Source: Oscillospiraceae bacterium (GTDB lineage: Bacteria; Bacillota; Clostridia; Oscillospirales; CAG-272). Taken from it: 64,000 nucleotides of DNA. The stretch spans positions 23,578-87,577 of the forward strand of contig SVTS01000001.1 in the NCBI GenBank assembly GCA_015063645.1, given 5' to 3'. The notes under the pieces are model-generated. The model did not search any database. It saw only the letters and a program-made list of their open reading frames with translations, and was not told the origin of the DNA. Made by a program: the position numbers and the translations under genes. Below, piece after piece: positions 6,504-42,906 of this stretch (position 1 is its first letter; each line of letters opens with the position of its first letter).

Positions 6504-6511
6504 AATATACA

Positions 6512-10236: not shown

Positions 10237-10294
10237 AAAACACCTCGCAAAAATATCCGGCAGTTTATTTCTTCCCGCCGCTTATTATGTACAT

Positions 10295-10323: not shown

Positions 10324-10349
10324 TAGTTTTGGTTAAACAATATCCGGAA

Positions 10350-10387
10350 TAAAAATCCCGCTCTGTCATTGCAGGCAGAGCGGGATT
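10350..10387 (-). terminator. Rho-independent terminator after 831-aa gene
   Basis: aatcccgctctg / cagagcgggatt stem followed on the minus strand by TTTTTATT. Confidence 0.65.
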
Positions 10388-10395
10388 CCGAATGA

Positions 10396-21102: not shown

Positions 21103-21110
21103 GGTGGATT

Positions 21111-22205
21111 ATGATTAAAGCTGTTATAATCGGATTCTCCCACATGCATGTGAATGAGATCGCGCAGTACATCAGCGAGCAGCCCGATTTTACTCTGTCG
21201 GCAATCGCTGAGGTCGCCGGAAGCGGTGAGGGGATTCCTCCGCTCCGCTACACGCCTGCATGGAATCTGGCAAATGTAAAAGAAAAATACTGCCGGAACG
21301 AATATGCGGATTACCGCGAGATGCTGGATCGCGAGAAGCCGGACATCGCATTCATTCTGACGGAAAACTGCCAGAAGCCCGATGTTGTGGAAGAATGTGC
21401 GAAGCGCGGTGTCAACGTCTGCATTGAAAAGCCGATGGCTGTTTCCTATGCGGAAGCGAAACGGATTGAAGCCGCTGTAAAGGCACACGGCATCACTGCC
21501 GTTGTGAACTGGCCGGTAATCTGGCGTCCGTATCTGCACAAGCTCTGTGCCGCTGTAGAAAGCGGTATCGTGGGCAAGCCGATCAAGATGCGGTACATAA
21601 ACGGTCACACCGGACCTCTTGGCAAGGGTGCCCGCCACCGCGGCGTTGCTGAAAGCGCGGAGGAAATGACGGATGAGATTCGGGGACGCACCTGGTGGCA
21701 CAATGCCTCCCACGGCGGCGGCGTATTCCTCGACATCAGCTGTTACGGCTGTCTGTTCACGCAGTGGCTCATGGGGGACGGTGCGGAAAGTGTACTGGCA
21801 TATGGCGCTGATCTGAACACTCCCTTCGGTGACACGGCAGACAATGCCGCTGCTATTGTCCGTTTTGCGGATAAGATGTCCGTTATCGAAGGAACCTGGA
21901 CTACGCCCCGCGCACTGATTCCCTCCGGTCCGATGGTCAACTGCACAGACGGTGTGGTCACCTGCACCGGCGGTGCAGAGGACACTCCCGACGTCAAAGC
22001 ATACGATATGTTCGGCAAGGAAGTTGCTCTGCCCGAATATCAGCCGCAGGACAGCATGCGCAACATGCCCTGGCATTGGGCTGCTCACGTACAGGAAGGC
22101 AAACCGTTTTGCCGTATGGTTACGCTGGAGGAGAATCTGCGCGTAATGGCGATTCTTGACGCTGTAATCCGTGCATCCGCCAGCGGAAAAGCAGAAAAAG
22201 TATGA
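21111..22205 (+). CDS. Gfo/Idh/MocA family oxidoreductase (divergent N-terminus)
   Basis: 364 aa. IKAVIIGFSHMH and CIEKPMAVS motifs. Starts 8 nt after the previous gene, with an AAGGTGG RBS. Confidence 0.8.
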   Translation: MIKAVIIGFSHMHVNEIAQYISEQPDFTLSAIAEVAGSGEGIPPLRYTPAWNLANVKEKYCRNEYADYREMLDREKPDIAFILTENCQKPDVVEECAKRGVNVCIEKPMAVSYAEAKRIEAAVKAHGITAVVNWPVIWRPYLHKLCAAVESGIVGKPIKMRYINGHTGPLGKGARHRGVAESAEEMTDEIRGRTWWHNASHGGGVFLDISCYGCLFTQWLMGDGAESVLAYGADLNTPFGDTADNAAAIVRFADKMSVIEGTWTTPRALIPSGPMVNCTDGVVTCTGGAEDTPDVKAYDMFGKEVALPEYQPQDSMRNMPWHWAAHVQEGKPFCRMVTLEENLRVMAILDAVIRASASGKAEKV

Positions 22206-22966
22206 CGGGAATTATTGCGGATATTCAGCGTGCATCCGTCCATGACGGTCCCGGACTGCGCACGACGGTGTTTTTCAAAGGCTGTCCTCTGCGCTGCAGT
22301 TGGTGCCACAATCCGGAATGCATCTCCCCGAAGCCTCAGACACTGTTTTATCCGGACAAATGCATTCACTGCGGCGGATGTGCACAGGGATGCTTTTCCG
22401 GGGCACGTGTTCTCTGCGGGAAGATCATGGACACAGATACGGTTCTCGGCGAGATTCTCGCGGACAAAGATTACTATGGGACGGAAGGCGGTGTTACGTT
22501 CTCCGGCGGCGAACCGCTTCTGCAGGCGGATTTCCTGGCAGAGCTGACTGACGCATGTATTGCCTCCGGAATCCGGTGTGCGATGGAAACGTCGCTCTGG
22601 TTCTTCCGGGAGGATATTTTCACCCGCATGCAGCTTATAATGGCGGATCTGAAAATCTGGGACGGCGAAACCCATCGCCGATACACGGGTGTGTCCAATG
22701 AGCGCATCAGGGAGAATTTCCGTCGTTTGAATGAGCTTGGTATTCCGATTATTGCCCGTACGCCGGTGATTCCGGAGATCAGCCAGGGAATTCCGGAGAT
22801 TTCAGAATTTCTCAGAGGACTTGAGAACGTGAAAAAGTATGAGCTTCTTCCCTATCATCCGCTGGGCAATGCAAAGCTGACGGCACTGGGAATGGGATCT
22901 CCCTCTTTCACCGTACCGGATAAGGAACTTATGAAGGAGTTAAATCAACATGTATTCATACGCTGA
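22202..22966 (+). CDS. Glycyl-radical enzyme activating protein (radical SAM)
   Basis: 254 aa. SVHDGPGLRTTVFFKGCPLRCSWCHNPE (CX3CX2C) and GGVTFSGGEPLLQ. One extra Cys cluster, CIHCGGCAQGC. Its start overlaps the upstream stop (ATGA). Confidence 0.9.
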   Translation: MTGIIADIQRASVHDGPGLRTTVFFKGCPLRCSWCHNPECISPKPQTLFYPDKCIHCGGCAQGCFSGARVLCGKIMDTDTVLGEILADKDYYGTEGGVTFSGGEPLLQADFLAELTDACIASGIRCAMETSLWFFREDIFTRMQLIMADLKIWDGETHRRYTGVSNERIRENFRRLNELGIPIIARTPVIPEISQGIPEISEFLRGLENVKKYELLPYHPLGNAKLTALGMGSPSFTVPDKELMKELNQHVFIR

Positions 22967-25166
22967 CAGACTGCGCGCCATGCGTGAGACGAAGATCCGT
23001 CACACGCTGGAAAAGCGCAAGCAGAACGGATGCACGGATCTGGACGATTTCGGCACGGTGCCGCTCTCGCCCGGTTACTGTGTCATTCCGTGGTACAACA
23101 GTGAAAACGGCAGTTTTTACGGGCTGGACGGCATGGCGGAGAATTTTGTCCGCGTTATCGGTGCACATGAGCCGTATATTGACAAGAATGAAATGCTCTG
23201 CGGACGCTGGCGTGACATGCTGGTCAACTATCGCGGCGATCTGCATTACATGCCTGACTGGCTGAAGAATAATCTGAAGAATCTGGAATTTATCCAGAAA
23301 GGTGCCACCAATCAGTGGAGCAAGCGCTGGGACGAACAGCGTTTCCCCTACGATCATCTGAAGCCGTGGCATGTGAAATACAATATCACCAGCGGTATTG
23401 ACAGTGATGCGCATTTCGCATGCGATTACCGGATCGGTTTTGCGCTCGGCTTCGGCGGTATGCTGGAGAAGATCCGGAAGTACCGTGCGGTAAATCCCGA
23501 CAAAGCTGCTTTTTATGATGCAGAAGAACGCTGCGTCAACGCAATTGTGGACTTTATCCAGCGGCACATTGACCGACTTCACACTATGATCGCTGAGGAA
23601 ACAGACCCCGCTGTTCGCGAAAATCTGAAAACAATGTGCGAGACCTGCGAAAATGTAAAACTCGGGGCTCCGGGCACTTTCCGGGAAGTCTGCCAGTGGA
23701 CTGCATTCTTCAACTGTGCTGCACGCATTTACACCCGTGACGGTGCGGGATTCCAGCTGGATACGCTTCTGCTTCCCTATTATGAGAAAGATGTCAAAGA
23801 CGGAATTCTGGATGATGAAACGGCGAAATTCCTCATTGCCAATCTTCTGCTGATCGATCCGCATTACTATCAGATCTCCGGTGTGGATGAAAATGACCGT
23901 GATGTCACAAACCACCTCTCCTATCTGATTCTCGACGCGGCGGATTCCATCAACATCTCCTGCAATCTGACTGTACGCGTCCATGACAACTGCGATCCGG
24001 CGTTTATCCGCAAAGCGGTCTATTATCTGTTCAAGAACAAGAACGGCTGGCCCCGTTTTGCCAATGATGAAGCCCTCTGCAGCGGATACATGCGCACGGG
24101 TGCCGACAAAAAGACAGCCCGGGAGCGCATTGCCGTAGGCTGCCATTGGATGTGCGTACCGGGCCGGGAATTCCCCATGAACGACACGGTGAAAATCAAC
24201 GTTGCCAAGGTTCTGGAAGAAGCTCTGAAGGATATGCGCGGTGAAAGCGATAAATCCACAGAAAAGCTGTTTGCGCTTTACGAGGCGCATCTGACAAAAG
24301 CTGTGGAAATCACTGCGGCGGGCATCAATCATCATCTGGATCACATCGCGGATGTTACTCCGGAGCTGATTATGAATCTGATGATGCACGGGACTCTGGA
24401 AAAGGGAGAAGACATTTCCCGCTGTGCGGAGCTTTATACGGTCGGTATTGACGGCGCCGGTCTTGCGGTTGTTGCCGATTCATTCGGCGCACTGCAGGCG
24501 CGCATTGAAAATGAACATCTGCTGTCCTGGGAGGATATGTACGCCGCGCTGGACGATAATTTCGCCAATGAGCGTACGCGCGCTATGATGCAGTCTGCCC
24601 CCCGTTACTGCGGCGGAAACACTGTTTCGGATGCTTGGGCGAAGCGTCTGACCGAAAGCTGGGTACGCATTGTCCGCGCACAGGCGATGCCGGAGGGACG
24701 CCAGATGGTTCCCGGCTGGTTCAGCTGGTCCAGAACGATCGAATACGGTTCCAAGGTTGGTGCTACGCCCAACGGACGCCGTGCCGGTGAGCCGATCTCC
24801 CACGGTGCGAATCCGAATCCGCATTTCCGGCAGGATGGTGCTGTCACAGCGCTCGCCGGCGGTATTGCGGCAGTTCAGTGCGGCTGGGGCAACACGGCTC
24901 CGCTGCAGCTTGAGTTTGATCCCCAAATCACAGTAGAAGAAGGCGGCGTTGAGCGCGTCACGGAGCTGCTTCTCTCTCATTTCCGGCAGGGCGGAACGTT
25001 GATCAACATCAACATTCTGGATGGTGAAAAGCTGCTTGCGGCGCACAGGGATCCCGATCTGTATCCGGATCTGGTAGTCCGCGTTACGGGATTCACGGCA
25101 TATTTCGCCAGCCTTTCCCCCGCATTCCGTCAACTGGTTGTCAACCGTTTTCTGGAAGGAATCTGA
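22950..25166 (+). CDS. Glycyl radical enzyme (PFL-like fold), function unknown, non-canonical Cys loop
   Basis: 738 aa. C-terminal fingerprint VVRVTGFTAYF (Gly714 codon at 25089..25091). Cys loop AVGCHWMCVPG (Cys398 codon at 24141..24143). AAGGAG RBS, and a 17-nt overlap with the activase gene. Confidence 0.9.
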   Translation: MYSYADRLRAMRETKIRHTLEKRKQNGCTDLDDFGTVPLSPGYCVIPWYNSENGSFYGLDGMAENFVRVIGAHEPYIDKNEMLCGRWRDMLVNYRGDLHYMPDWLKNNLKNLEFIQKGATNQWSKRWDEQRFPYDHLKPWHVKYNITSGIDSDAHFACDYRIGFALGFGGMLEKIRKYRAVNPDKAAFYDAEERCVNAIVDFIQRHIDRLHTMIAEETDPAVRENLKTMCETCENVKLGAPGTFREVCQWTAFFNCAARIYTRDGAGFQLDTLLLPYYEKDVKDGILDDETAKFLIANLLLIDPHYYQISGVDENDRDVTNHLSYLILDAADSINISCNLTVRVHDNCDPAFIRKAVYYLFKNKNGWPRFANDEALCSGYMRTGADKKTARERIAVGCHWMCVPGREFPMNDTVKINVAKVLEEALKDMRGESDKSTEKLFALYEAHLTKAVEITAAGINHHLDHIADVTPELIMNLMMHGTLEKGEDISRCAELYTVGIDGAGLAVVADSFGALQARIENEHLLSWEDMYAALDDNFANERTRAMMQSAPRYCGGNTVSDAWAKRLTESWVRIVRAQAMPEGRQMVPGWFSWSRTIEYGSKVGATPNGRRAGEPISHGANPNPHFRQDGAVTALAGGIAAVQCGWGNTAPLQLEFDPQITVEEGGVERVTELLLSHFRQGGTLININILDGEKLLAAHRDPDLYPDLVVRVTGFTAYFASLSPAFRQLVVNRFLEGI

Positions 25167-30802: not shown

Positions 30803-33505
30803 TCACTGAACAGGCGGGATCATCCAGCCGTATTCGCCGATAAGTACCTGGCTGAGACCAAGGGAAATAAATGCATCCGGATCTTTTATCCATCCGGCAC
30901 TGCCGGCTGTAATGCGCATTTTGAACGGGCGGGCTTTTTCAAGTCCGAAGTTTCGCAGATCAATATGGAGTCGCCAACCGTTCGCAAGTTTCTCCTTATT
31001 GGCATACTTTTGCAGTTCTGCATTCCACTTATCGCCGAAGATGGAATTATATAATTTTGTGTCCTGTTCGCTTCCGAATTTCACGGTTCCGTCCGGATGA
31101 ATTGCGATTGCCGGATTCGGAGTAAAGAGCTGATACTCCGGACAGATTCGGAACACGGTTGGTGTCTGTGCACACAAATCCAGAGTCAGTTCCGTTCCAC
31201 TGACTGCACCGCGGAACTGTGCACCGGTACCGATCATCTCCCAGGGGGCGGTTTCGATATCGCTGCTCAATTCATAGCGGGCACCGTCCCCCTCTCCGAG
31301 GTAATAGGCAAGCGGTGCTTTTCCATCAGCAATGCGTGCGCGGACACGGGGGAATTCCTCTGCAAGCAGTTTTTCAAGCTGGGCAATGCGATCGAGAATT
31401 TTTTCCGTGAAGAATTTGTAGCCCTCTCCCTCGGAATGATAGCCGAGACGCCCGTCCTCTTCGCAGAGCGGGATCATGGCACGGCTGTTTTCTATTTCTG
31501 CGTATACCAGCGTTTCCATGGACTTCAAGATTTCCCAAGGATTTCGCTGCTGTGTACCGAGTTCATCACGGAGTTTATAGAATGCAAGAATATTCCGACC
31601 ACCGCTGAAGAGAATGCCGATGGCTTTCGCTACAGAGATCTGTTCGGTCATATCTTCCCCTGATGCGGAAAGGGATGTCAGGGCGGCAAGTCCTTCCGCC
31701 CATGCTTCACACATACCGTTCAGGAGCGTAAGGGCTTCATCCAGTGTATGTCCCTGCAGCAGGCTCTCGCCGATTCTGTCGCCGTCGATAGGATCCAGCG
31801 TCTGCCAGGTACGGGGGAGTTTATTATTCTTCGGTTCCAGATACAGCTTCCAGACAACGCTGTCATGCATGGGTCCGTAATAGCTGAACATGATGTTCAT
31901 AGGGTACATACGGTAGGATTTTTCAAAAAGCTTCCAGGCGAGTACAACCTGCGAGGCTCTGGAACGTCCCCAATAGATAGCCGCAAGCGAGGTGAGGAAT
32001 GCATCCTCATCTTCGTATTTCTCCACAAACGCCAATTCTCCGGCAGCTTTACTCATCATGGAGGGATAATTGCCGAAGTACCAGCACTGCATTACACCCT
32101 CCACACCGTATGCACGGGCTGCTGCATATTTCTTATAGATAATTCCGGGCACGGGGATATAGGGCACGCTGGCGATCTCGTGAGAACAGCACACCTGCAT
32201 TTTGGCAAACATATGCTTGCCGCACTGCTGTGCTTTTTCTGCGGTAACGGTAAACAATTCAGACGGTCCGACATAGGAAAGCCAGTAATCCACGCACTGA
32301 CGCATGACACCAAGCTGCTCCTCGTAGCCCATATCATCAAAATTCTGCATCAGCATAACATCCACGGGAGCACGCTCCACATAATCAAGGATATCGCTAT
32401 ACTCCCATACGCGGTGTCCATATGTCCAGCTGATCACTTCACAGGCGGGATTTACGCTGTGCATGCCGGAGCGCAGTGCTTCCACGTCATCGGCAAGCAG
32501 CTGACCGCTGCATGCGGCAGGACAAGTGCCCTTCGGGCATTGACGATTCTTGACAGATGCGCAGGAAGTCGGGCGTTCGCCCATGGTGATACTGATAAAT
32601 CCACGGATTCCGGGAGCGTTCTCCAACAGCCGTCTGCCGGCTTCATAGACAAACTTCTTTCCTTCTTCGGATTCCACGCAGATACAGTGATGCTTTACCG
32701 GCTCTGCATCGCGGGCAACAAGCGGTTTATATGTTCCGGTGGATACGCCCTGAATTTCCGGGCAGTTTGCAAAATCATTTTCCGGCATGGATGTCGGTTC
32801 GATAGCAAATACATACACACCGATACCGTACCGGGCGCATTTCTCCACGACACGGTTCAGTTTTGCGACGCGGGCATCTTTGCCCTTGCCCCACGACGGA
32901 ACAAAAGAGGAGTCAACAAGATCGGAGAAACGGGTATAGATCCACACGCCGTTGACGCCGTCGTGCATGAGACGGTTCAGATATTCGTCAGGGTAGTAAT
33001 CGATTTCATCGGACAATTCGTCGCCGTATTTGGGGGCGCGATTGATGGGACTGAAGAAACAGCGTGTAATCCTGGAACGGATCACTGCATGGCGTTCTGT
33101 AACGCCGGGCATAAGATACGGCGCTTCCGCACGGCGGAGTTCATCCTCCAGCCACACAAGCGCGCGGCGGATTCCTTCGGTATCACCGCTGATCCGGATT
33201 CCATCCGAGGATATTTCCGCTTTCCAGGATTCAGTGCGCTCTGTTGCTGTCAGGGTAACGAATACGGGATATCGACTGCCCTGTATATGATAAATCTGCA
33301 GAAAGCGGTTCAGGGATTCCCAGGAAGTCTTCAGAATGTCATCCGGACATTCTGTCGCCAGATACATGCCGGAGGCATCGATTTCACCTGGCTCCACCGG
33401 GCGTTTGCCCCAATCCGTCGGAGCGTTCCGGTACATGGGGATTTTTAATTCTTCGATAAAGGTAAAAGGCGGCTGTTTGTCAAAAAAAGGATCCAAGCGG
33501 GGCAT
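30803..33505 (-). CDS. Large cytoplasmic protein of unknown family (900 aa)
   Basis: Uninterrupted 900-aa ORF starting 18 nt after the upstream gene. No signal peptide. Contains a Cys-rich stretch CASVKNRQCPKGTCPAAC. I cannot assign a family. Confidence 0.65.
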   Translation of the reverse strand: MPRLDPFFDKQPPFTFIEELKIPMYRNAPTDWGKRPVEPGEIDASGMYLATECPDDILKTSWESLNRFLQIYHIQGSRYPVFVTLTATERTESWKAEISSDGIRISGDTEGIRRALVWLEDELRRAEAPYLMPGVTERHAVIRSRITRCFFSPINRAPKYGDELSDEIDYYPDEYLNRLMHDGVNGVWIYTRFSDLVDSSFVPSWGKGKDARVAKLNRVVEKCARYGIGVYVFAIEPTSMPENDFANCPEIQGVSTGTYKPLVARDAEPVKHHCICVESEEGKKFVYEAGRRLLENAPGIRGFISITMGERPTSCASVKNRQCPKGTCPAACSGQLLADDVEALRSGMHSVNPACEVISWTYGHRVWEYSDILDYVERAPVDVMLMQNFDDMGYEEQLGVMRQCVDYWLSYVGPSELFTVTAEKAQQCGKHMFAKMQVCCSHEIASVPYIPVPGIIYKKYAAARAYGVEGVMQCWYFGNYPSMMSKAAGELAFVEKYEDEDAFLTSLAAIYWGRSRASQVVLAWKLFEKSYRMYPMNIMFSYYGPMHDSVVWKLYLEPKNNKLPRTWQTLDPIDGDRIGESLLQGHTLDEALTLLNGMCEAWAEGLAALTSLSASGEDMTEQISVAKAIGILFSGGRNILAFYKLRDELGTQQRNPWEILKSMETLVYAEIENSRAMIPLCEEDGRLGYHSEGEGYKFFTEKILDRIAQLEKLLAEEFPRVRARIADGKAPLAYYLGEGDGARYELSSDIETAPWEMIGTGAQFRGAVSGTELTLDLCAQTPTVFRICPEYQLFTPNPAIAIHPDGTVKFGSEQDTKLYNSIFGDKWNAELQKYANKEKLANGWRLHIDLRNFGLEKARPFKMRITAGSAGWIKDPDAFISLGLSQVLIGEYGWMIPPVQ

Positions 33506-33523: not shown

Positions 33524-34645
33524 TCAGTATCTTCCGTAATTCTGGATTGCTGCCATAACGGTACGCATACTTGTCAGAAGCGAGCCGTTATTGATGGAAC
33601 CTGCGGTGCTCAGATTCAGACCGCGGGCATCGTTTTCCCGCGCCATTTCACAGTCGCGCTTTACTTCTGCGATAATATCTGCTTCGTTATTGCGCATGAA
33701 GGTGAACGGTGCCAGTTGTCCGTCAATACGTGTATGCGGCATATATTTCCGGATATGGGAAACGGTTACGGTTGGACCGAAATTGCAGCCTGTCAGATGC
33801 AGGCGGGCAAGGATCGGCACAAGGTGACCCATCGCAGAATCGGAATGCTGGAAACGGTTATCATCCGGATTCGGAGAAACACGCTCAAAGACGGATTTCA
33901 GAATGGGATAGCCGAACGCTTCATACATTTCGGGAGTCATCAGGTTGCTGTCATCGTCATAAAAACTGAATCCGTGGGAGAAATTCTCTTCACTATGCCC
34001 GGATTCCTCGATGAAGATACTGATGTATTCATGCACAACGCGAAGGATCGTCTCGGAGAAACGACGGAAAAGATCAGGATTATCATAGTAAAGGAACAGA
34101 AGATTTTCGGTACCGTATACAGAGGATGCCAGTGTTACGGGACCGCGGATACTTTTGAATTGCCCGGGACGTTTTCCATACTTCTCATAGAGACGCTTCT
34201 TTTCAGACTCCCAGTTAGCAGGCAGAATGAAGGAGCGCAGATCCAAATGATCGATCTCATCCAGTTTCTTTGCGAGGGATTCTTCATCGGTAAGCGTTCC
34301 CTTCAGCCATGTTGTCTTTCCGTCAAACACATACTGACCGCCGAAAACTTCGCCGATCTGGCGGAACGCCGGGAAAAAGCTGTCTGCGGGAGCAGGAGGA
34401 TTTTCACGCAGGAGTTTGCGTCCCACTATCTTCAGCGCTTTTTCGTTGTAACGCTTATTCAGCTCCAGTCTGCGCTCGGGCGGTGTATAGCCCCATGGTT
34501 CGCCCTCTTCTCCAAGTTCGGCGAAGACGCATTCATCACTCATACGGATGCCCAGCGCGACCTGCGGGGCCTCTTTGGAAAAACAGTTTTCCCTATGTGC
34601 CAGTTCATCATCTTTCCAGAACTGTTCGATATCCAGATCCAGCAT
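33524..34645 (-). CDS. Cytoplasmic protein of unknown function (373 aa)
   Basis: Uninterrupted ORF apparently co-transcribed with the 900-aa gene. No reliable motif recognised. Confidence 0.6.
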   Translation of the reverse strand: MLDLDIEQFWKDDELAHRENCFSKEAPQVALGIRMSDECVFAELGEEGEPWGYTPPERRLELNKRYNEKALKIVGRKLLRENPPAPADSFFPAFRQIGEVFGGQYVFDGKTTWLKGTLTDEESLAKKLDEIDHLDLRSFILPANWESEKKRLYEKYGKRPGQFKSIRGPVTLASSVYGTENLLFLYYDNPDLFRRFSETILRVVHEYISIFIEESGHSEENFSHGFSFYDDDSNLMTPEMYEAFGYPILKSVFERVSPNPDDNRFQHSDSAMGHLVPILARLHLTGCNFGPTVTVSHIRKYMPHTRIDGQLAPFTFMRNNEADIIAEVKRDCEMARENDARGLNLSTAGSINNGSLLTSMRTVMAAIQNYGRY

Positions 34646-34802: not shown

Positions 34803-36146
34803 TTACTTGATTTTCACAGTTACCTTACCGGTGTAAGCATAAAGTACAAGATCTCCCTCTGCAATATCCTCCTCAATCAGATATGCTACCTTCCACTGGT
34901 TATTACCGAGATATTCACGGTATATGATCTCGCTGCTGTCGGCACGAGATTCCGGCTTTCTGTCAACTACGGTATCAGGCGGGGAGATAAAATCGATTAT
35001 GCCATCTGTAACCGTGTAGCTGTAAATATCGTACCCGTTTACACAGGCCTGAAGCATTCCCTCACGGTCTTCTTCGTCGAAGCTCTCAAAATTGAGTTCC
35101 GACATCGTCATCGTAACAACGACCAGCTTTTTCTGCGACAGGACGGTGTCACCAAACTGCAGGTTCCAATGATTGCCTTCCCGAACGATAAGCTTCTCCG
35201 TGCGATTGTATGGAATAAGATTTCCCGCATCATCGACAAATTTGTTGACAAAATCCTTCCGGAGGATGCATCCTGGTTTCAGTACATTGATGTTATCGAA
35301 AAATTCGGCTTTATTTACAGTAATAGTGTACAAGTCGGTGGCGGCACGCCTCGACTCACCGATTTCGATAAGATCTGTCTCATAAACCGGATCTACTTCA
35401 TAATAGTACACCTTCTGTTCATCATTGCCTGAAGTATCGCCCACCTCATTTATAATCGGAAGTGCAAGAAGAACGTCGGTCGTTTCTTCAACGGTCATCG
35501 TAGAAACAAGCGTGGTCAATTCGTCATCTGTGATACCGTAGCTGACCCACAGCTTCAGAACAAGTTCTTCTTTTTCAAACAGAATAAAAGCAGTACGGTT
35601 ATAGTACGCGGCATCACTGTTTGAACCAATCACAAACATGGTTTTTCCGCCAACATCGATCTGTTTTGCTTCATCTCCACCGCCAATAATCTGATCAAGG
35701 TCGCTCCGGCGCAGATCGATGCCGTTGATGGTCATGGAACGGGAGCTGTCTTCGCTGTAATACTTACCGTTTGTGTTTTCTCTTTCGCGCATATCGGAGG
35801 GCAAATCGGGGATATTCAGGCGGATACTGATTTCGCCTTCTTTTGCATTCCAGCTTCTGACAGGCTTTTCCTCAGCATCATCATTCTCACCGGTTTCATT
35901 CAGACTTGCGTGAATACGAACTTCATCACCGTTCTGCTCCATGCGGAAGTCGATCCATTGTACTGCAGCATATACGCTGACTGTCAGCACAGACAAAATA
36001 GCGACAGAAGCTATAATTTTGATTGGGATACGGGTATAGAAGCAGTTTTTTTTCTCCGCTTTGAGAGTTTCTTCACGCCGCAGAGCATGGAGTACCGTTT
36101 CTTTACGTTCAGTGTAAGATTTTGAAAAGATATGTTTATCTCTCAT
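34803..36146 (-). CDS. Single-pass membrane protein, anti-sigma-factor-like partner
   Basis: 447 aa. Short cytoplasmic N-terminus, one TM helix (IKIIASVAILSVLTVSVYAAV) and a large external domain. Overlaps the sigma-factor gene by 11 nt. Confidence 0.55.
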   Translation of the reverse strand: MRDKHIFSKSYTERKETVLHALRREETLKAEKKNCFYTRIPIKIIASVAILSVLTVSVYAAVQWIDFRMEQNGDEVRIHASLNETGENDDAEEKPVRSWNAKEGEISIRLNIPDLPSDMRERENTNGKYYSEDSSRSMTINGIDLRRSDLDQIIGGGDEAKQIDVGGKTMFVIGSNSDAAYYNRTAFILFEKEELVLKLWVSYGITDDELTTLVSTMTVEETTDVLLALPIINEVGDTSGNDEQKVYYYEVDPVYETDLIEIGESRRAATDLYTITVNKAEFFDNINVLKPGCILRKDFVNKFVDDAGNLIPYNRTEKLIVREGNHWNLQFGDTVLSQKKLVVVTMTMSELNFESFDEEDREGMLQACVNGYDIYSYTVTDGIIDFISPPDTVVDRKPESRADSSEIIYREYLGNNQWKVAYLIEEDIAEGDLVLYAYTGKVTVKIK

Positions 36147-36657
36147 GGTGTCTCTCCTTTTTCAGATTTATCGGTGTCGACTTCAAGAATTTACGAGCAC
36201 GCTCACACCGTTTTCTTACAAGATCTTCGCTGATCTTCAGTACGGCTGCTGTTTCCCTGATATTTAGCCCGTCAAGAAACAGACACCGCATAACGGAGGC
36301 GTACTTGGGTGGAAGATCAGATATCAAGGACAACGGCAGGTTCACAAGTGTTTCTTCTTCCGATATAATCGTATTTTCGATAGCTTCATCCATCTCCACA
36401 CAGTGCTCCCGCTGCTTCTTTTGTCGGCGATATATATCCAGAGCAGTACTGTTTACTGTTTTGTAGACATATCTCCGAACTGCAGCAGAATTGGGATCCA
36501 CAATCTTTTTTCGATTTCGTATCAACCTCAGAAATGCTTCATGTACTGCATCTTCCGCAAGATATTCGTCATGCAATATCTTGTATGCTTCGAAATACAT
36601 CGGCTGTTCGTAAAGCCTGTACAGCACGTCAATTATATCCTCGTTTGTATATGGCAT
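36136..36657 (-). CDS. Sigma-70 family (ECF-like) RNA polymerase sigma factor
   Basis: Start set at ATG 36657 (AAGGAG 6 nt upstream) rather than 36750. Region 2-like AEDAVHEAFLRL and region 4 HTH ETAAVLKISEDLVRKRCERARKFL. Confidence 0.75.
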   Translation of the reverse strand: MPYTNEDIIDVLYRLYEQPMYFEAYKILHDEYLAEDAVHEAFLRLIRNRKKIVDPNSAAVRRYVYKTVNSTALDIYRRQKKQREHCVEMDEAIENTIISEEETLVNLPLSLISDLPPKYASVMRCLFLDGLNIRETAAVLKISEDLVRKRCERARKFLKSTPINLKKERHHER

Positions 36658-36767
36658 ACTATACTCCTTTCCCTGTTTTTTCGTCCGGACATTAACCATA
36701 ACGATAAAATAGGTGGATTTGTGACAAAGCCGCAAGAGTTTTTTCCGCATATTCTTTTGGGTATATT

Positions 36768-36800
36768 ATAAAAAGCCGCAAATCGCGTGATTTGCGGCTT
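36768..36800 (-). terminator. Rho-independent terminator after second GRE gene
   Basis: aagccgcaaatc-gcgt-gatttgcggctt stem followed on the minus strand by TTTTTA. Confidence 0.65.
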
Positions 36801-36837
36801 AAGTAAATGATATTGGCAGCGCAGCGGGGATTATTCT

Positions 36838-39024
36838 TTACAATTCAATTTCAGTACGGGCGATAATATTATCCTGCAGTCCTTCTGAAAGGGCTGTGAA
36901 ATAATCGCTGTAGCCGCCTACGCGGACGATGAGATTTCCGTGGTTTTCCGGATGGATTTTTGCATCGAGAAGTTCTTCATGGGAGATCGCGTTGATCGAA
37001 AGCTGCTGACCGCCGCCGGCAAAATAGGTTTTTGCCAATGCGATAAATGCCTGCTGACCGCGCTCTGTACCGAGAATGCTCTTTGAGAACTTCATCTGCA
37101 TGACGTTGCCGCTCTTGGCAAGCGACTGATCTGCGATAAGCACGGAATTGAGCAGAGCTGTAGGACCGTTTTTGTCACAGCCGGGTACTGCACCGATACT
37201 GTCAGCGAGGAGAGATTCGCCTCTCTTTTTTCCGTTGGGCAATGCGCCGATCGCTCCGCCGTATGTGGCAGCGCGGGAGAAGGTACTGCATCCACCGCCG
37301 AACTGACCACCGCGATACGGATGCTTGGTCAGCAGATATCCGTAGAAATGATCGGTGACATTCCGGTAGATTTCATCCACATAGGCACAGTCGTTGCCGA
37401 ATTTATCAAAACTCCTGAAGTCGCGGTACATCCCGTCCCAGCCCTCGAAGTTATTATCCAGCGCATCCATCAGATCCGTCATGGAATATTTATGGGTATC
37501 AAAAACAAAATGACGTACTGCTGCCAGAGAGTCCACAGCATCTGCAAGTCCCTCTGCCAGAATCTGCGCACCGGCATACAGGGGACCGCGGTTTTTCATA
37601 TCAGCACCGCGCTCGATACATCCGAGGATCAGGTTGGAACGGTGGGGATTGGGGGCAATGCGGGACATGATCTCCTGAGTACGGCTTGCCACATCTGTAA
37701 CGGAATCAGTTACATATTCCACCTGCCGGCAATATGCTGCATAAAGGGCTTCATAATCCGCAAACTGTCTCGGATCTCCTGTATCAACGCCAACCTGTTT
37801 GCCACTAAGGGGACATTTACCGCGGTAGAGCGCCATCTCCAGACATTTGGCAAGGCACACTTCCCCGTCTTCCAGTCCCATATGGGATTTGCCGAAAATA
37901 TCGATCTGATTACAGCCGTTCATACAGTAATCGTGGGCATCTTCCGACGGGATCCCAAGTGCTTCCAGCGCGGGACAAACGCATTCGTCATTATACAGAG
38001 CGGGCATGCCGCATCCGGTTGCTATTGCCGCAGCAGCGCTTTTCCAGAGAGCCTCAGGCGTCCCTTTATGGACACGCATGGTTACGTTGGGAGCATCACA
38101 GGCGAATTCACGCACAAGATCCAATACTGCATAGGATACTTCATTGGTCTCGTCATTACCGGCTGCGTCGGAGCCGCTGATGCACAGATTCCACGCTCTT
38201 GTTTTCTTGAACAGATGCCACAGGGCACGCAGGCATTCGCGCCGGTCTTTTTCCTCGGATTTCCGCCAGTACGGGATCATAAACTGATCAAAACGTCCGG
38301 GTGAATCAATTCCGTCTGTACAGAATACAAGCCAGAACATCTGGCATGCTTCAAAGAAATCCTTCGGCGGATTCTGCGGAACACGGGTAAGGGCATCGGC
38401 AATACGTGCAAGACGTGCGCGGTCAGCATCACTCGTGCTCTTCTCCTCCATTTCGGCGGCAAGAGCCTGATAACGTGCAGCGATTGTATCTACGGCATCC
38501 AGCGCGAGCAGAAGTCCGTCGTAGAATACATCTTTTCCGTTATTGACCGTACGGTAATGTGCAATCTTTTTACGCAGACCGTCTGTTCCGTTTTCAAGGA
38601 GAATATCGTATCCTGGATTGGAATGTCCGCCGGTCCAGGCACGCAAGCCGCCTCCCCAACCTGCCTCACACCGGGAAATATTCCATTCTGCCTCGGTTAT
38701 ATGCTCACGCACAGAGGCAACTGTATCTATATTGGCACATTTATCCAGAATCTCTGCCAGTTCTTCGGCGTATTCCGGGTACTGTTCCATATTGCGGCGG
38801 AGTTTATCCTGCTTCACAACAATGCCAATACCGTATTCGAACTTTACGCCGCACGGGTCATTTTCATTGTACCAGCCGGCAAACATATGATCATCCGGGA
38901 TACTGATGGGCATATGCTGGGCGCGGCGGAGAAGTCCGGAAGCGATACGATAGCCAACATCGTCCTTTTCCGCTTCCAGATAGCCGACAGCAAAAGGTTC
39001 TATGGTATTCATATACTTTTTCAT
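36838..39024 (-). CDS. Glycyl radical enzyme (PFL-like fold), second divergent copy, function unknown
   Basis: 728 aa. C-terminal fingerprint LIVRVGGYSDYF (Gly704 codon at 36913..36915). Cys loop CMNGCNQIDIFGK (Cys371 codon at 37912..37914). AAAGGAG RBS. Confidence 0.9.
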   Translation of the reverse strand: MKKYMNTIEPFAVGYLEAEKDDVGYRIASGLLRRAQHMPISIPDDHMFAGWYNENDPCGVKFEYGIGIVVKQDKLRRNMEQYPEYAEELAEILDKCANIDTVASVREHITEAEWNISRCEAGWGGGLRAWTGGHSNPGYDILLENGTDGLRKKIAHYRTVNNGKDVFYDGLLLALDAVDTIAARYQALAAEMEEKSTSDADRARLARIADALTRVPQNPPKDFFEACQMFWLVFCTDGIDSPGRFDQFMIPYWRKSEEKDRRECLRALWHLFKKTRAWNLCISGSDAAGNDETNEVSYAVLDLVREFACDAPNVTMRVHKGTPEALWKSAAAAIATGCGMPALYNDECVCPALEALGIPSEDAHDYCMNGCNQIDIFGKSHMGLEDGEVCLAKCLEMALYRGKCPLSGKQVGVDTGDPRQFADYEALYAAYCRQVEYVTDSVTDVASRTQEIMSRIAPNPHRSNLILGCIERGADMKNRGPLYAGAQILAEGLADAVDSLAAVRHFVFDTHKYSMTDLMDALDNNFEGWDGMYRDFRSFDKFGNDCAYVDEIYRNVTDHFYGYLLTKHPYRGGQFGGGCSTFSRAATYGGAIGALPNGKKRGESLLADSIGAVPGCDKNGPTALLNSVLIADQSLAKSGNVMQMKFSKSILGTERGQQAFIALAKTYFAGGGQQLSINAISHEELLDAKIHPENHGNLIVRVGGYSDYFTALSEGLQDNIIARTEIEL

Positions 39025-39057
39025 AGGCGCTCCTTTTGATTCTGCAGTATTTTTATA

Positions 39058-39111
39058 ATAGACAAATTCTCTTACTGTCTATATTATAGCAGGTACTTCT
39101 TTATTTGTAAA
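39058..39111 (-). promoter_or_regulatory. Promoter TTTACA-17-TATAAT followed by 7-bp inverted repeat ATAGACA-n11-TGTCTAT
   Basis: On the minus strand, -35 is at 39106..39111 and -10 at 39083..39088. The IR at 39058..39082 covers the predicted transcription start. Confidence 0.45.
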
Positions 39112-39159
39112 CTGAAAATAATGTATTTTGTCATTATTTTTACCATTAATTGCACACAT

Positions 39160-39205
39160 GCAAATAAATCCCGCTGAAGACCGTTTTACGGTGTCAGCGG
39201 GATTT
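39160..39205 (-). terminator. Rho-independent terminator after oxidoreductase gene
   Basis: aaatcccgctga ... tcagcgggattt long hairpin followed on the minus strand by TTTATTT. It separates the oxidoreductase from the GRE gene. Confidence 0.6.
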
Positions 39206-39211
39206 GAAATT

Positions 39212-40222
39212 TTATTCGGCTGCAGCCTGGATGGTAAGGACTTCGCGGGAAGTACGGATCACTTCTGCCGTATCGATAAGCAGATCGGTTTCGCCGTTGA
39301 TCTCACGGACAAATTCCCCGAGACCGGTGACATTATAGGATTTCAGTTCTACGGGAGCAAATCCGCTGCTGCCCTCAAGGGCAACCTGAAGAAGGACTGC
39401 CGTATCGGAATCGATACCTGCCTTGCCGGCACCTTTCATCTTATATTCAGCAACGCCCTTGGTACCCCAGAAGGTCATACGCCAATAGGTTTCCAGGGAG
39501 AATCCGCAGCTGGCGGGAGCAGCATAGGAAACGTCAGCTGTAAAGCCTGCACCGTTCTCCAATTCTGCCATAAACTGTCCGCAGTCACGGAAATCCGGTT
39601 CTTCCTTGGCAAAGTGGTTCCATGTACGGGCTGCGGTTACGTTTTTCACGCCCATACCGGTAACAAAACGGACAAGATCCACGCCGTGGATTGCGATATC
39701 ATTGATCGTGCCGCCGTGCTTGCCTTCTTCAAAATACCACATGGGGCGGGAGCCGTACTGCAGGGGATGCTGTGCGGTCATATTGATACAGCCGATTTCA
39801 CCAAGCATACCGTCGGCGATCATCTCGCGGAGGTTACGGATACCTGCGGAGAAGCGCAGCGTCAGATAGCAGCCGACTTTGAGATTCTTCTCTTTTGCCA
39901 GCTTCTCGATCTCATCAATTTCGGCAAGGGATGTGCAGACAGGCTTATCCGCATACACATGTTTGCCGGCACGCAGAGCGGCAATTGCCTCTCCGCCCCG
40001 CTCACCGAAGGAGCCGCCCAGGCAGATGGCATCTACTTTTTCATCTGCGAGAACGGATTCGAGCGTAGGATAATTGAATTCCAGTCCGAGACCGTCTGCC
40101 AGTGCCTTACCGTCATCGGTATCTTCCCATGCACCAAGAACGGTGATGTTGGGGTCTTTCATTGCTTCCTGATAAATTGCTCCGGTATGTCTGTGTTTGA
40201 AGCCGACAAATGCCAAATTCAT
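39212..40222 (-). CDS. Gfo/Idh/MocA family oxidoreductase
   Basis: 336 aa. MNLAFVGFKHRH start and YADKPVCTS (an EKP-motif variant). A TTGCAT-17-TATAAT promoter lies upstream. Confidence 0.8.
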   Translation of the reverse strand: MNLAFVGFKHRHTGAIYQEAMKDPNITVLGAWEDTDDGKALADGLGLEFNYPTLESVLADEKVDAICLGGSFGERGGEAIAALRAGKHVYADKPVCTSLAEIDEIEKLAKEKNLKVGCYLTLRFSAGIRNLREMIADGMLGEIGCINMTAQHPLQYGSRPMWYFEEGKHGGTINDIAIHGVDLVRFVTGMGVKNVTAARTWNHFAKEEPDFRDCGQFMAELENGAGFTADVSYAAPASCGFSLETYWRMTFWGTKGVAEYKMKGAGKAGIDSDTAVLLQVALEGSSGFAPVELKSYNVTGLGEFVREINGETDLLIDTAEVIRTSREVLTIQAAAE

Positions 40223-40341
40223 AAGTAAATCTCCTGTTCTGATTCCAATTCCGGGAAACCTGCGGCGTCCCGTGATACGGGTATATTATAACACACTTCC
40301 CTGTATTATGCAAGCAAAAATACGGTTTAAGCGGTACAGTC

Positions 40342-41196
40342 TCAGAATATATACATATATTTTTTCCGGTATTCTTTTGGGGTCATGCCTGTTCTCGCTT
40401 TGAACAGGCGACGCATTTGAGCGGAATCGGAAAAACCTGTTTTGTTGATGATTTCCTCAACGGTACTGTCCGTACTTCGCAGATATTCACATACTTTCCC
40501 GATTTTGATCGCGTTGATATACTGTTTGGGAGTCATTCCCTTCTGTTGAGTGAAAACACGGATCAGATGCTCCACGGACACATGACACTGCTCTGCAACA
40601 TCATTTACGGTCAGATACGGATTGAATGCATCCGCCTCTATGATCCCTATAGCTTCAAGCAGAAAGGACGGGGGTTTCTGCTGCACCATTTTACTTTGCT
40701 GTTCGCGACTCTCCGCATAGGCATGGATAAACATCCAGATCAGCGAGAGCGTGCGGCTTCTCATGTTCACCTTCCAACCGGGATCTTTCCGCATGAAGAT
40801 GCCATATGCCTCTTTTATTTTCCTTTCTGCCTCCGGGTAATCCTCCGGCGCTGCCAGAAGAGAGGTATTCAGGGAAAAATCCAGTGGAAGCGGATCCCGT
40901 GTGAAGAATCCAACAAGATAGTACCGAAATGGAAGCATGTCTGAGGTATGTTCAAAAAAATCATCCGTCAGTTTTTTCAGAACAAACGTGCCAGCGGGTG
41001 CTGTCAAGGGCTTGCAGTCCCGGAAATGGATGATAAAACTCCCCTCCGTCACCAGCATAAGCGTGTACTTATGCAATCCCTTCGGTAATTGTCCCTGCCG
41101 GGCAATTCCGCAATCCCATGGATACGCACGGTAAACCGTATGACATTTGGGTATATGTTCCAGAACAACATCCATTTCACTTAGCACTTTATCCAT
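40342..41196 (-). CDS. AraC family transcriptional regulator
   Basis: 284 aa. C-terminal HTH (DVAEQCHVSVEHLIRVF..., GFSDSAQMRRLFKARTGMTP). Confidence 0.85.
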   Translation of the reverse strand: MDKVLSEMDVVLEHIPKCHTVYRAYPWDCGIARQGQLPKGLHKYTLMLVTEGSFIIHFRDCKPLTAPAGTFVLKKLTDDFFEHTSDMLPFRYYLVGFFTRDPLPLDFSLNTSLLAAPEDYPEAERKIKEAYGIFMRKDPGWKVNMRSRTLSLIWMFIHAYAESREQQSKMVQQKPPSFLLEAIGIIEADAFNPYLTVNDVAEQCHVSVEHLIRVFTQQKGMTPKQYINAIKIGKVCEYLRSTDSTVEEIINKTGFSDSAQMRRLFKARTGMTPKEYRKKYMYIF

Positions 41197-41400
41197 GAGC
41201 TCTCTTATCCTCTTTCAATCTTTGTATGAGTATTATACTCGATTCTTCTCGCTATGTCAATGATGTTCCCCTTTATTCAAGATAATTCTTTGTTTTTTTT
41301 TGCAGTATATCAATTACATCCTCTTTTCCATCAATTTCCCACCTGTTGTATCATACCAAGAGATGATATACTAAAATAAAAAATATTGAGGAGAATCGAC

Positions 41401-42906
41401 ATGAAACACACAAAACGTACTGCCCTGCTTCTCAGCATCCTTATGCTGTCTTCCGCACTGCTTGCTTCCTGTTCATCGGAAGAACATCCGTCGGATGACA
41501 CCTCCGTATCCGCCGAAACGACATCCGCACCCATTGCAGAAACCACCGCCGCACCGGAACCGGAAATTCCCTATGACTACATCGAAAAAACCTACGACGG
41601 ACGCACATACACGATGGCAACGCCGGCGGACGGCAGCCGCAGCATCCCCGGTATCTTCATCATGGAGGAAGAAACGGGCGATGTTGTCAATGATGCCGTC
41701 TACCGCCGCAATCTGACAGTCAAAGATAAGCTGGATGTGAAGCTGGCACACGTTATGCCCGCTCCGAAGTCCGGTTTCGCTGCCGCTATCCGCAGCGAAA
41801 TCCAGGCAATGAACACCAATTACGATCACACCACCAGCTTCTTCACCACTGTAGTCCCTCTGGTGACAGAAAGACTATTCACCCCCAGCACAGAACTTCC
41901 CTATCAGAAAAATATTTCCGGCAAGAGCTGGTACGGTGATAAACTGAACGATCCACTGAAAGTGAACGGTATGCAATACATGTTTCTCTCTGATATGGTT
42001 GCAATGCCCAATGCTATGTACGGCATGTTCTTTAATGTATCCCTCGGTGAGCGCAACGGTATCAAGGGGGTGGAGCAGGTGGTTTTTGATGGCAAATGGA
42101 CGCTGGATAAACTCTTTGAATACACAAATGACTTCACCAAGGATCTGAACGGCAACGGAACGATTTATGCAGACGATCTGCATGCACTCGGTCACTACGG
42201 AAATCTAAAGTCTGCAAAAAATGACACAGCCATGACTTACCAGTACGGGTTCGGTCAGATGACCGCCGTATTGAATAATCAAGGTGAAGTGGAACTGACA
42301 CTGAACAGCGATAAAATGCAGAGCATTGTTGAACGCTTGAACGATCTGTTTTTCACCGGTACTCGTACCGCCAATGTAATTACTGGTGCTACCTCCGCCG
42401 AGACCTTCGCTGAGGGCAGAATTCTGTTCTGGAATGCGATTCTCTTCCACGCAAGCAATTACATGCGCGAAATGGAAGACATTTATTATGCCCTCCCTAT
42501 GCCCAAGTGGGATGAGACGCAGGAGGAATATTACACTGCGTTGACTAATAGTTCTACGTTTATCACAGCAATTCCTTCCACTGCAAAAGATAAGGAATTT
42601 GCTTCCGCCGTATTCGATGCACTCTCTTATGAGGGGGAGCAGAACGTATATCCCGCTGTCTTTGAGATCACGATGAAATCCAAACTCTCCGCTGACAGCA
42701 CGGCATCCAAGCTGTTTGATCTGATCTGCTCGAATGCAGTCATTGATTTCGGTATGATGTATGACGGAGACTGCGGTATGTATACGCTGATCGCAAAGCT
42801 GATGTCGCAAAAATCCACTAATTTCGCCTCTGAATTTGCTGCAATCAAGGACAAAACCACCGCGCATTACAAAGAAGTTCTTGATATGTTTGCAAAACTC
42901 AGCTGA
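41401..42906 (+). CDS. Extracellular solute-binding lipoprotein (ABC-type, family-1-like), no adjacent permeases
   Basis: Start at ATG 41401 with a GAGGAG RBS. Signal peptide with lipobox LLASC. About 500 aa, the size and composition of sugar-binding lipoproteins. Confidence 0.7.
   Translation: MKHTKRTALLLSILMLSSALLASCSSEEHPSDDTSVSAETTSAPIAETTAAPEPEIPYDYIEKTYDGRTYTMATPADGSRSIPGIFIMEEETGDVVNDAVYRRNLTVKDKLDVKLAHVMPAPKSGFAAAIRSEIQAMNTNYDHTTSFFTTVVPLVTERLFTPSTELPYQKNISGKSWYGDKLNDPLKVNGMQYMFLSDMVAMPNAMYGMFFNVSLGERNGIKGVEQVVFDGKWTLDKLFEYTNDFTKDLNGNGTIYADDLHALGHYGNLKSAKNDTAMTYQYGFGQMTAVLNNQGEVELTLNSDKMQSIVERLNDLFFTGTRTANVITGATSAETFAEGRILFWNAILFHASNYMREMEDIYYALPMPKWDETQEEYYTALTNSSTFITAIPSTAKDKEFASAVFDALSYEGEQNVYPAVFEITMKSKLSADSTASKLFDLICSNAVIDFGMMYDGDCGMYTLIAKLMSQKSTNFASEFAAIKDKTTAHYKEVLDMFAKLS

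Follow-up and report, generated by a model that had tools for sequence, protein, structure and literature searches.

Glycyl radical enzymes (GREs) give gut anaerobes chemistry that affects the host, including routes to trimethylamine, p-cresol and precursors of H2S, and whole clades of them, known to be numerous, are still unassigned. All GRE 1,2-eliminases and isomerases keep a C-x-E motif at the catalytic cysteine, in which the glutamate contacts the substrate, hydrogen-bonding to its hydroxyl group and deprotonating it (2026 review, PMC13450708). The phenylacetate decarboxylase (PAD) PhdB carries a glutamine in its Cys loop (C482/Q484); this Q484 is essential, and a Q484E variant is inactive (PMC7079210). 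Solved eliminases include B12-independent glycerol dehydratase (GD, 1R8W) and 1,2-propanediol dehydratase (PD, 5I2G). Here we describe a GRE, named GRE2, that is encoded on a 64-kb stretch (hereafter the window) of a metagenome-assembled genome (MAG) from an Oscillospiraceae bacterium (GenBank assembly GCA_015063645.1, contig SVTS01000001.1, positions 23,578 to 87,577), next to genes for a Gfo/Idh/MocA (GFO) oxidoreductase, GFO2, and an AraC-family regulator.

We consider it probable that these three genes are independent transcription units lying side by side, that they form no dehydrogenase-GRE operon, and that GRE2, a member of an uncharacterised family, is activated in trans. To see a partnership at this locus is to over-read adjacency: the association is restricted to one lineage, finds no reciprocal support and is interrupted by transcription signals. 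Of greater interest is the GRE2 clade itself, which is widespread and unannotated, has a non-canonical Cys loop and shows a recurrent signature of an aldo-keto reductase (AKR) or short-chain dehydrogenase (SDR), a GRE and an activase.

The GRE2 locus and its window

A preliminary description of this locus, drawn from the DNA letters, had listed an AraC gene, an oxidoreductase gene and a GRE gene on the minus strand. Their coordinates and strands agree with the open reading frame (ORF) listing, and their Pfam domains with the proposed identities (Table 1). It had further noted an RVGGYSDYF fingerprint, which lies at residues 701-709 of GRE2, and the lack of an activase belonging to GRE2, which is borne out in that the sole radical-SAM activase in the window lies 14 kb off. 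It was also right that a first locus has the same components (AraC at 18870, GFO at 19981 and 21111, activase at 22202 and a second GRE, GRE1, at 22950) and that the two GREs are highly divergent; at 26% identity, GRE1 and GRE2 are best described as old, divergent paralogues and not as a recent duplication.

The window encodes rhamnosidase-like and melibiase-like proteins, a glucuronyl esterase, GDSL esterases and solute-binding proteins, and is a glycan-utilisation region. Among its roughly 45-50 genes are four Gfo/Idh/MocA oxidoreductases, pairwise 19-28% identical, and five AraC regulators. Because GFO genes are this dense, any gene of the window has about a 15% chance of finding one among its two immediate neighbours.

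GRE2 belongs to a Clostridia family with a C-N-Q cysteine loop

GRE2 is a member of the GRE superfamily of the PFL-like type, with the barrel, the RVxG[FWY] motif of the Gly loop and the catalytic Cys all present; the Pfam matches cover residues 17-589 (PF02901) and 607-710 (PF01228). None of the NCBIfam GRE models scores it above its curated cutoff. The scores are 376.9 bits against a cutoff of 678.2 for TIGR01774, a broad PFL2/glycerol-dehydratase subfamily, 276 bits against 1109 for NF007437 (formate C-acetyltransferase, an E. coli-derived PFL-like model), and 177-334 bits against cutoffs of 1000-1150 for HypD, CutC, HpsG, HpfG and other models. By NCBIfam, neither GRE1 nor GRE2 falls into an already characterised cluster; the preliminary description had named the opposite outcome, placement in unrelated characterised clusters, as one that would count against it. 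The MAG annotates the GRE2 product as 'hypothetical protein' (MBE6559523.1, locus tag E7662_00240), and PGAP gives the same label and no other to every other named family member among the homologues listed.

Homology searching showed that the relatives of GRE2 form a large, coherent family of 720-730 aa, and a motif-guided scan with one genome per species found them encoded in 443 genomes. We retrieved 80 of these loci, all from Clostridia and mostly from MAGs of Oscillospiraceae, Acutalibacteraceae and Ruminococcaceae, sampled from gut, rumen and digesters. A literature search for either GRE family, combined with Gfo/Idh/MocA, aldo-keto reductase, inositol dehydrogenase or Oscillospiraceae/rumen, found no paper describing them.

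In an alignment of 30 family members, the stretch Y-C-M-N-G-C371-N-Q373 followed by M-G-L-E-D-G-E is invariant, as are H134 and the Gly loop R701-V702-G703-G704; three invariant acidic residues thus stand just after the Cys loop. Counted by residue number, E385 corresponds to GD Asp447 and E388 to CutC Tyr506. Residue roles were assigned by aligning the sequence with those of solved enzymes. C371 aligns with CutC C489 and Q373 with CutC E491, so that the Cys loop C371-N372-Q373 has a glutamine, invariant in 30/30 sequences, where eliminases have glutamate. H134 aligns with CutC D216 and with the histidine of the eliminases at the general-acid position (PD H166, GD H164), and the loop bearing His281/Ser282 in GD is lost through a deletion of 6 residues. 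The AlphaFold2 (AF2) model of GRE2 (pLDDT 90.4) has its best fold matches in GD (1r8w) and PD (5i2g), at a TM-score of 0.90 and 27% identity. Judged on alignment and predicted fold, GRE2 is eliminase-like but lacks a defining eliminase feature, because its Cys loop reads C-N-Q and not C-x-E.

GRE2 has a dN/dS of about 0.09 against its closest relatives, two loci designated L082 and L086. Its amino acid identity to them is 77-80% (dN 0.14-0.16), whereas both flanking genes are 90-93% identical (dN 0.04-0.05), and its nonsynonymous rate is 2-4 times that of GFO2 (dN/dS 0.037) and of a URO-D-like gene on the other side (dN/dS 0.025). The most divergent part comprises residues 1-200, at 63% identity. 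This lower conservation could reflect relaxed constraint, adaptation or gene replacement by recombination. By these measures GRE2 is intact and under purifying selection, not decaying; the idea of a pseudogene was rejected on dN/dS and motif invariance.

Some other family loci had unusual GRE arrangements. Protein P0067 of L110 (927-4223), 1098 aa long, is predicted to join a WbsX-like domain (PF14307, 2.6e-48) at its N-terminus to a GRE of the C-N-Q type, and a GH78 alpha-L-rhamnosidase lies directly 3' of it; the predicted fusion may hint at a carbohydrate substrate. L034 and L036 (1797-12166) encode three GREs in a row, with G-C-D-K, G-C-N-E and G-C-N-Q loops, and a single activase. L039 (2834-13853) pairs a C-N-Q GRE with a divergent GRE, two activases, an AKR and an SDR; the divergent GRE has a G-C-S-G Cys loop, and no RVxG[FWY] match was found in it.

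Neighbours across the GRE2 family

The 80 loci were fetched with 10-kb flanks, genes were called by homology weighting and clustered, and the neighbours were annotated. For 79 loci we compared the 152 genes immediately adjacent to the GRE with the 577 genes three or more positions away. Activases made up 44/152 adjacent and 3/577 distant genes, and 47/79 loci have an activase within two genes of the GRE, leaving about 40% without. Aldo-keto reductases were strongly concentrated beside the GRE (21/152 adjacent, 4/577 away; odds ratio 23, p = 9e-12), and short-chain dehydrogenases less so (10/152 and 7/577; p = 6e-4). None of the 152 adjacent genes encodes a Gfo/Idh/MocA oxidoreductase (7/577 away), and only 1/79 loci has one within two genes of the GRE. 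AraC regulators are not enriched (2/152 adjacent, 12/577 away).

The recurrent architectures are AKR-GRE-activase; IclR, beta-propeller, SDR, GRE and activase; and a divergent AraC followed by a beta-propeller or SDR and then the GRE. Many of the neighbourhoods contain glycoside hydrolases. From gene order, a redox partner for the GRE2 family is plausible, but conserved linkage does not point to Gfo/Idh/MocA.

GFO2 and GRE2 are predicted to be separate transcription units

Of the transcription signals proposed in the preliminary description, the GRE promoter was recovered by the promoter scan and the terminator 3' of the GRE was found (Table 1). The promoter-like site lies in an AT-rich segment of about 80 nt that is missing from the shorter intergenic regions of L082 and L086. 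The same segment, likewise missing from both relatives, holds a perfect 7-bp inverted repeat, which may be a putative operator. GRE2 also has a good ribosome-binding site (RBS). The terminator that had been ascribed to the oxidoreductase is a stable hairpin, and its stem is kept in L082 and L086 with a compensatory change; a hairpin with terminator features follows GFO2 in 5/5 contexts read (the window, L082, L086, L101 and L105). The oxidoreductase promoter held up in part: the sequence is present, but the scan did not call it, its -35 hexamer matching only 3/6 positions. The region shows no overall excess of promoter-like sites (12 found, 8.7 +/- 2.8 expected), and an Rfam search of 36000-41600 returned no match, riboswitch or leader.

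Because a conserved hairpin follows GFO2 and GRE2 has a promoter of its own, the two genes are predicted to be separate transcription units and not to be co-transcribed.

GFO2 as a stand-alone gene

GFO2 scores above the cutoffs of three Pfam models (PF01408, 46 bits against 24; PF22725, 69.5 against 27; PF02894, 38.1 against 22.9) and has no NCBIfam equivalog. Its best NCBIfam score is to IolG, 82.6 bits against a cutoff of 355, and by NCBIfam it is not assignable to a named function such as IolG, levoglucosan dehydrogenase or glycoside 3-dehydrogenase, among others. The canonical dinucleotide-binding loop is GxGxxG. GFO2 begins AFVGFKHRHTG, with G-F-K-H-R-H-T in place of that loop, and its Pfam match starts at residue 27; the motif is kept in orthologues at 64-93% identity. 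A comparable loop (AVIGTAHPHT) occurs in the GFO proteins of cluster c48 at locus L076. GFO2 was considered as a close relative of the GRE1-linked GFO proteins, and this was rejected, identity being 19-21% with just the N-terminal motif in common.

The GFO2-GRE2 pair was found only in the two close relatives of the window. GRE2 and GFO2 are 77% and 93% identical to the window's in L082, and 80% and 90% in L086. In both, GFO2 is followed by GRE2, a URO-D-like gene and p900, a gene described below. In L082, the one of the two whose contig reaches upstream of GFO2, a GDSL esterase takes the place of AraC. The next relative, with a GRE 71% identical, has no GFO gene, and a relative at 61% has AraC, beta-propeller and GRE. 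In the other direction, GFO2 orthologues at 90, 82, 76 and 70% identity occur in four different contexts that contain no GRE, one of which the contig collection lists in 44 blocks. A GFO2 search of metagenome contigs gave 12 loci, none with a GRE, most of them too short or too distant to inform. From these contexts GFO2 would be a highly conserved, transcriptionally terminal, stand-alone gene, downstream of which GRE2 came to lie. It is probably a recent neighbour of GRE2 and not a conserved partner.

The association of GRE2 with both a Gfo/Idh/MocA gene and AraC, put forward in the preliminary description, is thereby not sustained: the adjacency is conserved solely in the closest relatives, and AraC is absent in L082 and rare among the genes adjacent to family GREs.

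The first locus is a conserved GFO-GRE module

The claim that a dehydrogenase-GRE partnership is functional and not coincidental stands for the first locus, a conserved module, and is not supported for the second, given the lack of adjacent GFO genes across the GRE2 family and the GRE-less contexts of GFO2. The cross-genome adjacency check suggested with that claim divided in the same way. The block GFO1a/GFO1b-activase-GRE1 is orthologously conserved in three independent genomes, often with extra GFO genes: an anaerobic-digester Clostridiales MAG (L076), a Tyzzerella MAG and a Lachnospiraceae MAG (L087 and L088 complete the set of loci). Gene order across these genomes indicates that the first locus is a true conserved GFO-GRE module, and it looks the better candidate than the GRE2 locus for a new GFO-dependent GRE pathway. 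GFO1b is the oxidoreductase most tightly linked to GRE1, and the activase gene overlaps that of GRE1, its cognate GRE. Homologues of GRE1 are 76-81% identical across Ruminococcaceae, Lachnospiraceae, Monoglobaceae and Tyzzerella, and are annotated only as 'formate acetyltransferase'. They have a distinctive, conserved N-terminus of about 150 aa and a G-C-[N/H]-W Cys loop without Glu, in which C398 and W400 are invariant.

Activation of GRE2 in trans is plausible. In L076, a distant genome, a GRE1-type GRE (4978-7125) whose module has one activase is followed 3 kb downstream by an activase-less GRE2-family gene (9998-12157), with GDPD, amidohydrolase and EamA transporter genes between the two; in the window, the GRE1 module and GRE2 are about 12 kb apart. 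The strongest hint that one activase, that of GRE1, might act on both GREs is, by analogy, this co-location. The Gly-loop sequence was also tried as a way of separating family members with a linked activase from those without one, and it does not separate them, RVGGYSDYF being common to members with and without an adjacent activase.

Genes downstream of GRE2

In L082 and L086 a URO-D-like gene, 90-92% identical to the window's, lies directly 3' of GRE2 after a gap of 35-38 nt, and the L082 gap has an RBS and no terminator. The p900 gene comes next after it in the window and in L082, whose orthologue is 75% identical. Judged by this spacing, GRE2 looks co-transcribed with the URO-D-like and p900 genes in its closest relatives. 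In the window, a pair of genes for an ECF-type (extracytoplasmic function) sigma factor and a 447-aa protein is inserted between GRE2 and the URO-D-like gene, is absent at that place in L082 and L086, and has a hairpin and a promoter-like site 3' of it. This sigma/anti-sigma insertion and the terminator split the GRE2-URO-D-p900 arrangement in the window. Neither the URO-D-like gene nor p900 is linked to the wider GRE2 family (79 loci), the exception being a URO-D orthologue in L065, at a distance of 8.5 kb.

The AF2 model of p900 (pLDDT 93.3) best matches the fold of BP0997, a GH138 alpha-galacturonidase acting on rhamnogalacturonan II (RG-II), with E = 8e-19 and a TM-score of about 0.5, followed by GH84, GH67, GH115 and GH20. 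Searches of Protein Data Bank (PDB) sequences with p900 and with the URO-D-like protein gave no match, and Pfam on 30 p900 homologues gave two marginal matches only. Four cysteines, a CPRC motif included, are conserved in the p900 family, which numbers about 1,336 representatives at 50% identity. On the predicted fold, p900 is probably an unclassified glycoside hydrolase family. Several genomes have URO-D/MtaA-like genes beside orthologues of GFO2 and close to genes of the GRE2 family (Table 1), and as a guess, their role in glycan islands could be demethylation of methylated sugars.

Table 1. Features of the GRE2 locus, the first locus and related loci (positions refer to the window unless another locus is named).
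Feature	Position	Strand	Basis or description
AraC promoter	41260-41232	-	Consensus TTGACA-17-TATAAT; promoter scan, 12/12 matches
AraC-family regulator	40342-41196	-	284 aa; Pfam HTH_AraC/HTH_18
Promoter-like site upstream of GFO2	40313-40285	-	TTGCAT-17-TATAAT; read from sequence
GFO2, Gfo/Idh/MocA oxidoreductase	39212-40222	-	336 aa; Pfam N- and C-terminal GFO_IDH_MocA domains
Hairpin terminator of GFO2	39166-39205	-	Between GFO2 and GRE2; -27.8 kcal/mol, z = -6.8
Promoter-like site of GRE2	39111-39083	-	TTTACA-17-TATAAT, TG-extended -10; promoter scan, 11/12 matches
Perfect 7-bp inverted repeat	39058-39082	-	ATAGACA-N11-TGTCTAT; between -10 hexamer and RBS of GRE2
GRE2, glycyl radical enzyme	36838-39024	-	728 aa; Pfam PFL-like 1.1e-115 and Gly_radical 3e-21
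Catalytic Cys371 of GRE2	37912-37914	-	Codon
Radical Gly704 of GRE2	36913-36915	-	Codon
Intrinsic terminator of GRE2	36800-36773	-	12-bp stem, 6 GC pairs, then T run
ECF-type sigma factor	36136-36750	-	Pfam Sigma70_r2/r4
447-aa gene	34803-36146	-	Overlaps sigma-factor gene; no Pfam match
Window-specific insertion (both genes)	34803-36750		Between GRE2 and URO-D-like gene
URO-D/MtaA-like protein	33524-34645	-	Pfam URO-D
p900	30803-33505	-	900 aa; no Pfam/NCBIfam match; predicted GH138-like fold
GRE1, GRE of first locus	22950-25166	+	738 aa; Pfam; Cys loop G-C-H-W
GRE activase, sole one in window	22202-22966	+	TIGR02494, 251 bits, above cutoff; sole tblastn match
GFO1b	21111-22205		N-terminus VIIGFSHMHVN
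GRE1-type module, window	19981-25166		
GRE1-type module, L076	667-7125		
GRE1-type module, L087	5918-12214		
GRE1-type module, L088	4658-14476		
URO-D/MtaA-like genes, L082	554-1615, 5883-7004		
URO-D/MtaA-like gene, L101	3115-4362		
URO-D/MtaA-like gene, L065	14980-16092		

Discussion

In the account that we favor, enzymes of the GRE2 family would use a thiyl radical to abstract hydrogen from a hydroxylated substrate, probably one derived from carbohydrate. We suggest this because of the dehydratase-like fold and histidine, the three invariant acidic residues, the glycoside-hydrolase neighbourhoods and the predicted WbsX fusion beside GH78. By analogy, PhdB shows that a Cys-loop Gln is compatible with catalysis initiated by hydrogen abstraction. 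The AKR or SDR would handle a carbonyl product or precursor; in most genomes the GRE gene belongs to a small operon that also encodes its activase, often with one of these reductases ahead of the GRE. In the lineage of the window, the linked activase and the linked reductase would both have been lost, and GRE2 would have landed downstream of GFO2 and upstream of the URO-D-like and GH138-like genes. There it would be transcribed from its own promoter and activated in trans, either by the GRE1 activase 14 kb away or by an activase elsewhere in the genome. That the C-N-Q clade is a new GRE class, transforming a plant-glycan sugar or polyol through initial hydrogen abstraction without a Cys-loop glutamate as base, coupled to AKR/SDR and here sharing the GRE1 activase, so that one activase would serve two non-canonical GREs of one glycan-utilisation island, is a bolder proposal, to which we give tentative credence at best.

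Several observations weigh against this account of independent units and activation in trans. The part of the genome analysed is the 64-kb window. The neighbour counts are not phylogenetically independent and come from a crude ORF caller, although their direction is clear despite the non-independence. A search of the window for homologues of the family's AKR, SDR and beta-propeller partners found none, and it is conceivable, if rather doubtful, that GFO2 has taken over the role of the missing usual reductase. GFO2 and GFO1b both carry a G-F-x-H-x-H loop (residues 1-13 and 1-14). The GFO2-GRE2 adjacency is kept in three lineages despite differing flanks, with a GDSL esterase or AraC upstream and the sigma insertion downstream, which goes beyond what a purely accidental neighbour would lead one to expect. 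As for activation, the window activase is 52-66% identical to those of GRE1-type modules and about 42% to those beside GRE2-family genes, and the Gly loops differ (RVGGYS and RVTGFT). The known cases of cross-activation involve mainly GREs whose Gly loops are nearly identical (review PMC13450708), and we are cautious about it here because the window activase is just about 42% identical to the family's and the Gly loops differ.

Some of these points would fit a functional pair of GFO2 and GRE2 under the adjacent AraC, making up a second dehydrogenase-GRE pathway with a substrate specificity other than that of the first locus. Such a pair would explain an adjacency that outlives rearranged flanks in two relatives and the atypical loop common to GFO2 and GFO1b; the first locus, with GFO and GRE1, is proof that pairings of this kind exist, and with a family linked to NAD(P) oxidoreductases of the AKR and SDR types, GFO2 could be a non-orthologous replacement. 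We nevertheless judge a functional pair unlikely, since none of the 152 genes adjacent to family GREs is a Gfo/Idh/MocA gene, four contexts hold GFO2 orthologues at 70-90% identity and no GRE (44 contig blocks in one case), and a conserved terminator and a separate promoter stand between the two genes. Moreover, AraC is not conserved beside the pair (L082), GFO2 is only 19-26% identical to the GFO proteins of the first locus, and the GFO/AraC density of the window would by chance alone produce such an adjacency in about 15% of cases.

A different grouping would place GRE2 with the genes on its other side, in an ancestral GRE2-UROD-p900 operon of a plant cell-wall side-chain utilisation island that the sigma-factor insertion split in the window. 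The short GRE2-URO-D gap and the following p900 in L082/L086, with an RBS and no terminator in the L082 gap, speak for this grouping, as do the GH138-like fold predicted for p900, the surrounding glucuronyl esterase, GDSL esterases, rhamnosidase-like and solute-binding proteins, and the other family member fused to a WbsX-like domain beside a GH78 rhamnosidase. It is a possibility that we hold with reservation, as no URO-D or p900 gene turns up near the 79 other loci of the family, barring the L065 URO-D at 8.5 kb, a strong terminator follows GRE2 in the window, and the URO-D-like gene there has a promoter-like site of its own. The flanks, at 90-93% identity against 77-80% for GRE2, also fit a less constrained or later-arriving passenger. 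That GRE2 is instead a decaying, non-functional paralogue that has lost its activase and catalytic glutamate is very improbable. In favor of decay, no activase was found within 14 kb of it, it has Gln at a position where the E-to-Q change abolishes activity in CutC and HypD (PMC7079210), and its nonsynonymous rate is raised 2-4-fold over the flanking genes. Against it stand a full-length intact ORF with a dN/dS of about 0.09, a promoter close to consensus, a good RBS, a terminator, and a Gln373 and YCMNGCNQ...MGLEDGE motif invariant across a family in which 47/79 members have an activase within two genes; moreover, PhdB is active although its Cys loop has a Gln, which it needs (PMC7079210).

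The analysis tells a true, widely conserved GFO-GRE module, at the first locus, apart from a look-alike adjacency at the second, and is a warning for annotators that adjacency in GFO/AraC-dense genomes need not mean partnership. It also defines a large unannotated GRE family of Clostridia, present in 443 species genomes, without the glutamate hallmark of eliminases and isomerases. For enzymologists, the clear operon order, an AKR or SDR followed by the GRE and the activase, offers a defined three-gene set.

Comparison with known systems

Like GD and PD, GRE2 has a ten-stranded barrel, a catalytic Cys, a radical Gly and the histidine found at GD His164 and PD His166, and its relatives also occur in operons with an activase and carbonyl-handling enzymes. 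Unlike them, it has the C-N-Q loop, lacks the GD His281/Ser282 loop, is 60-110 residues shorter and has no microcompartment genes, aldehyde dehydrogenase or Fe-dependent alcohol dehydrogenase (Fe-ADH) nearby. With PhdB, the one characterised GRE with Gln at Cys+2, it shares this residue as Q373. The other essential residues of PhdB find no counterpart in GRE2: Trp495, at Cys+13, corresponds to GRE2 Leu384 when mapped by numbering and not by alignment. The best sequence and fold matches of GRE2 are eliminases, not decarboxylases, and its context is carbohydrate-related rather than one of aromatic amino-acid fermentation, with no evidence of orthology to PhdB.

The anhydro-sugar-phosphate isomerases YbiW and PflD, which act in gut bacteria, resemble GRE2 in fold (TM-score 0.86-0.88) and in the sugar-derived class of substrate that the context of GRE2 suggests; unlike GRE2, they keep C-x-E (Glu443/Glu433) and partner with aldolases. 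The GRE1 module differs in its overlapping cognate activase, its conserved GFO partners and its 76-81% cross-family identity, none of which GRE2 shares. Like GRE2, it represents an uncharacterised GRE without a Cys-loop Glu, in the same organism and in the same glycan-utilisation region.

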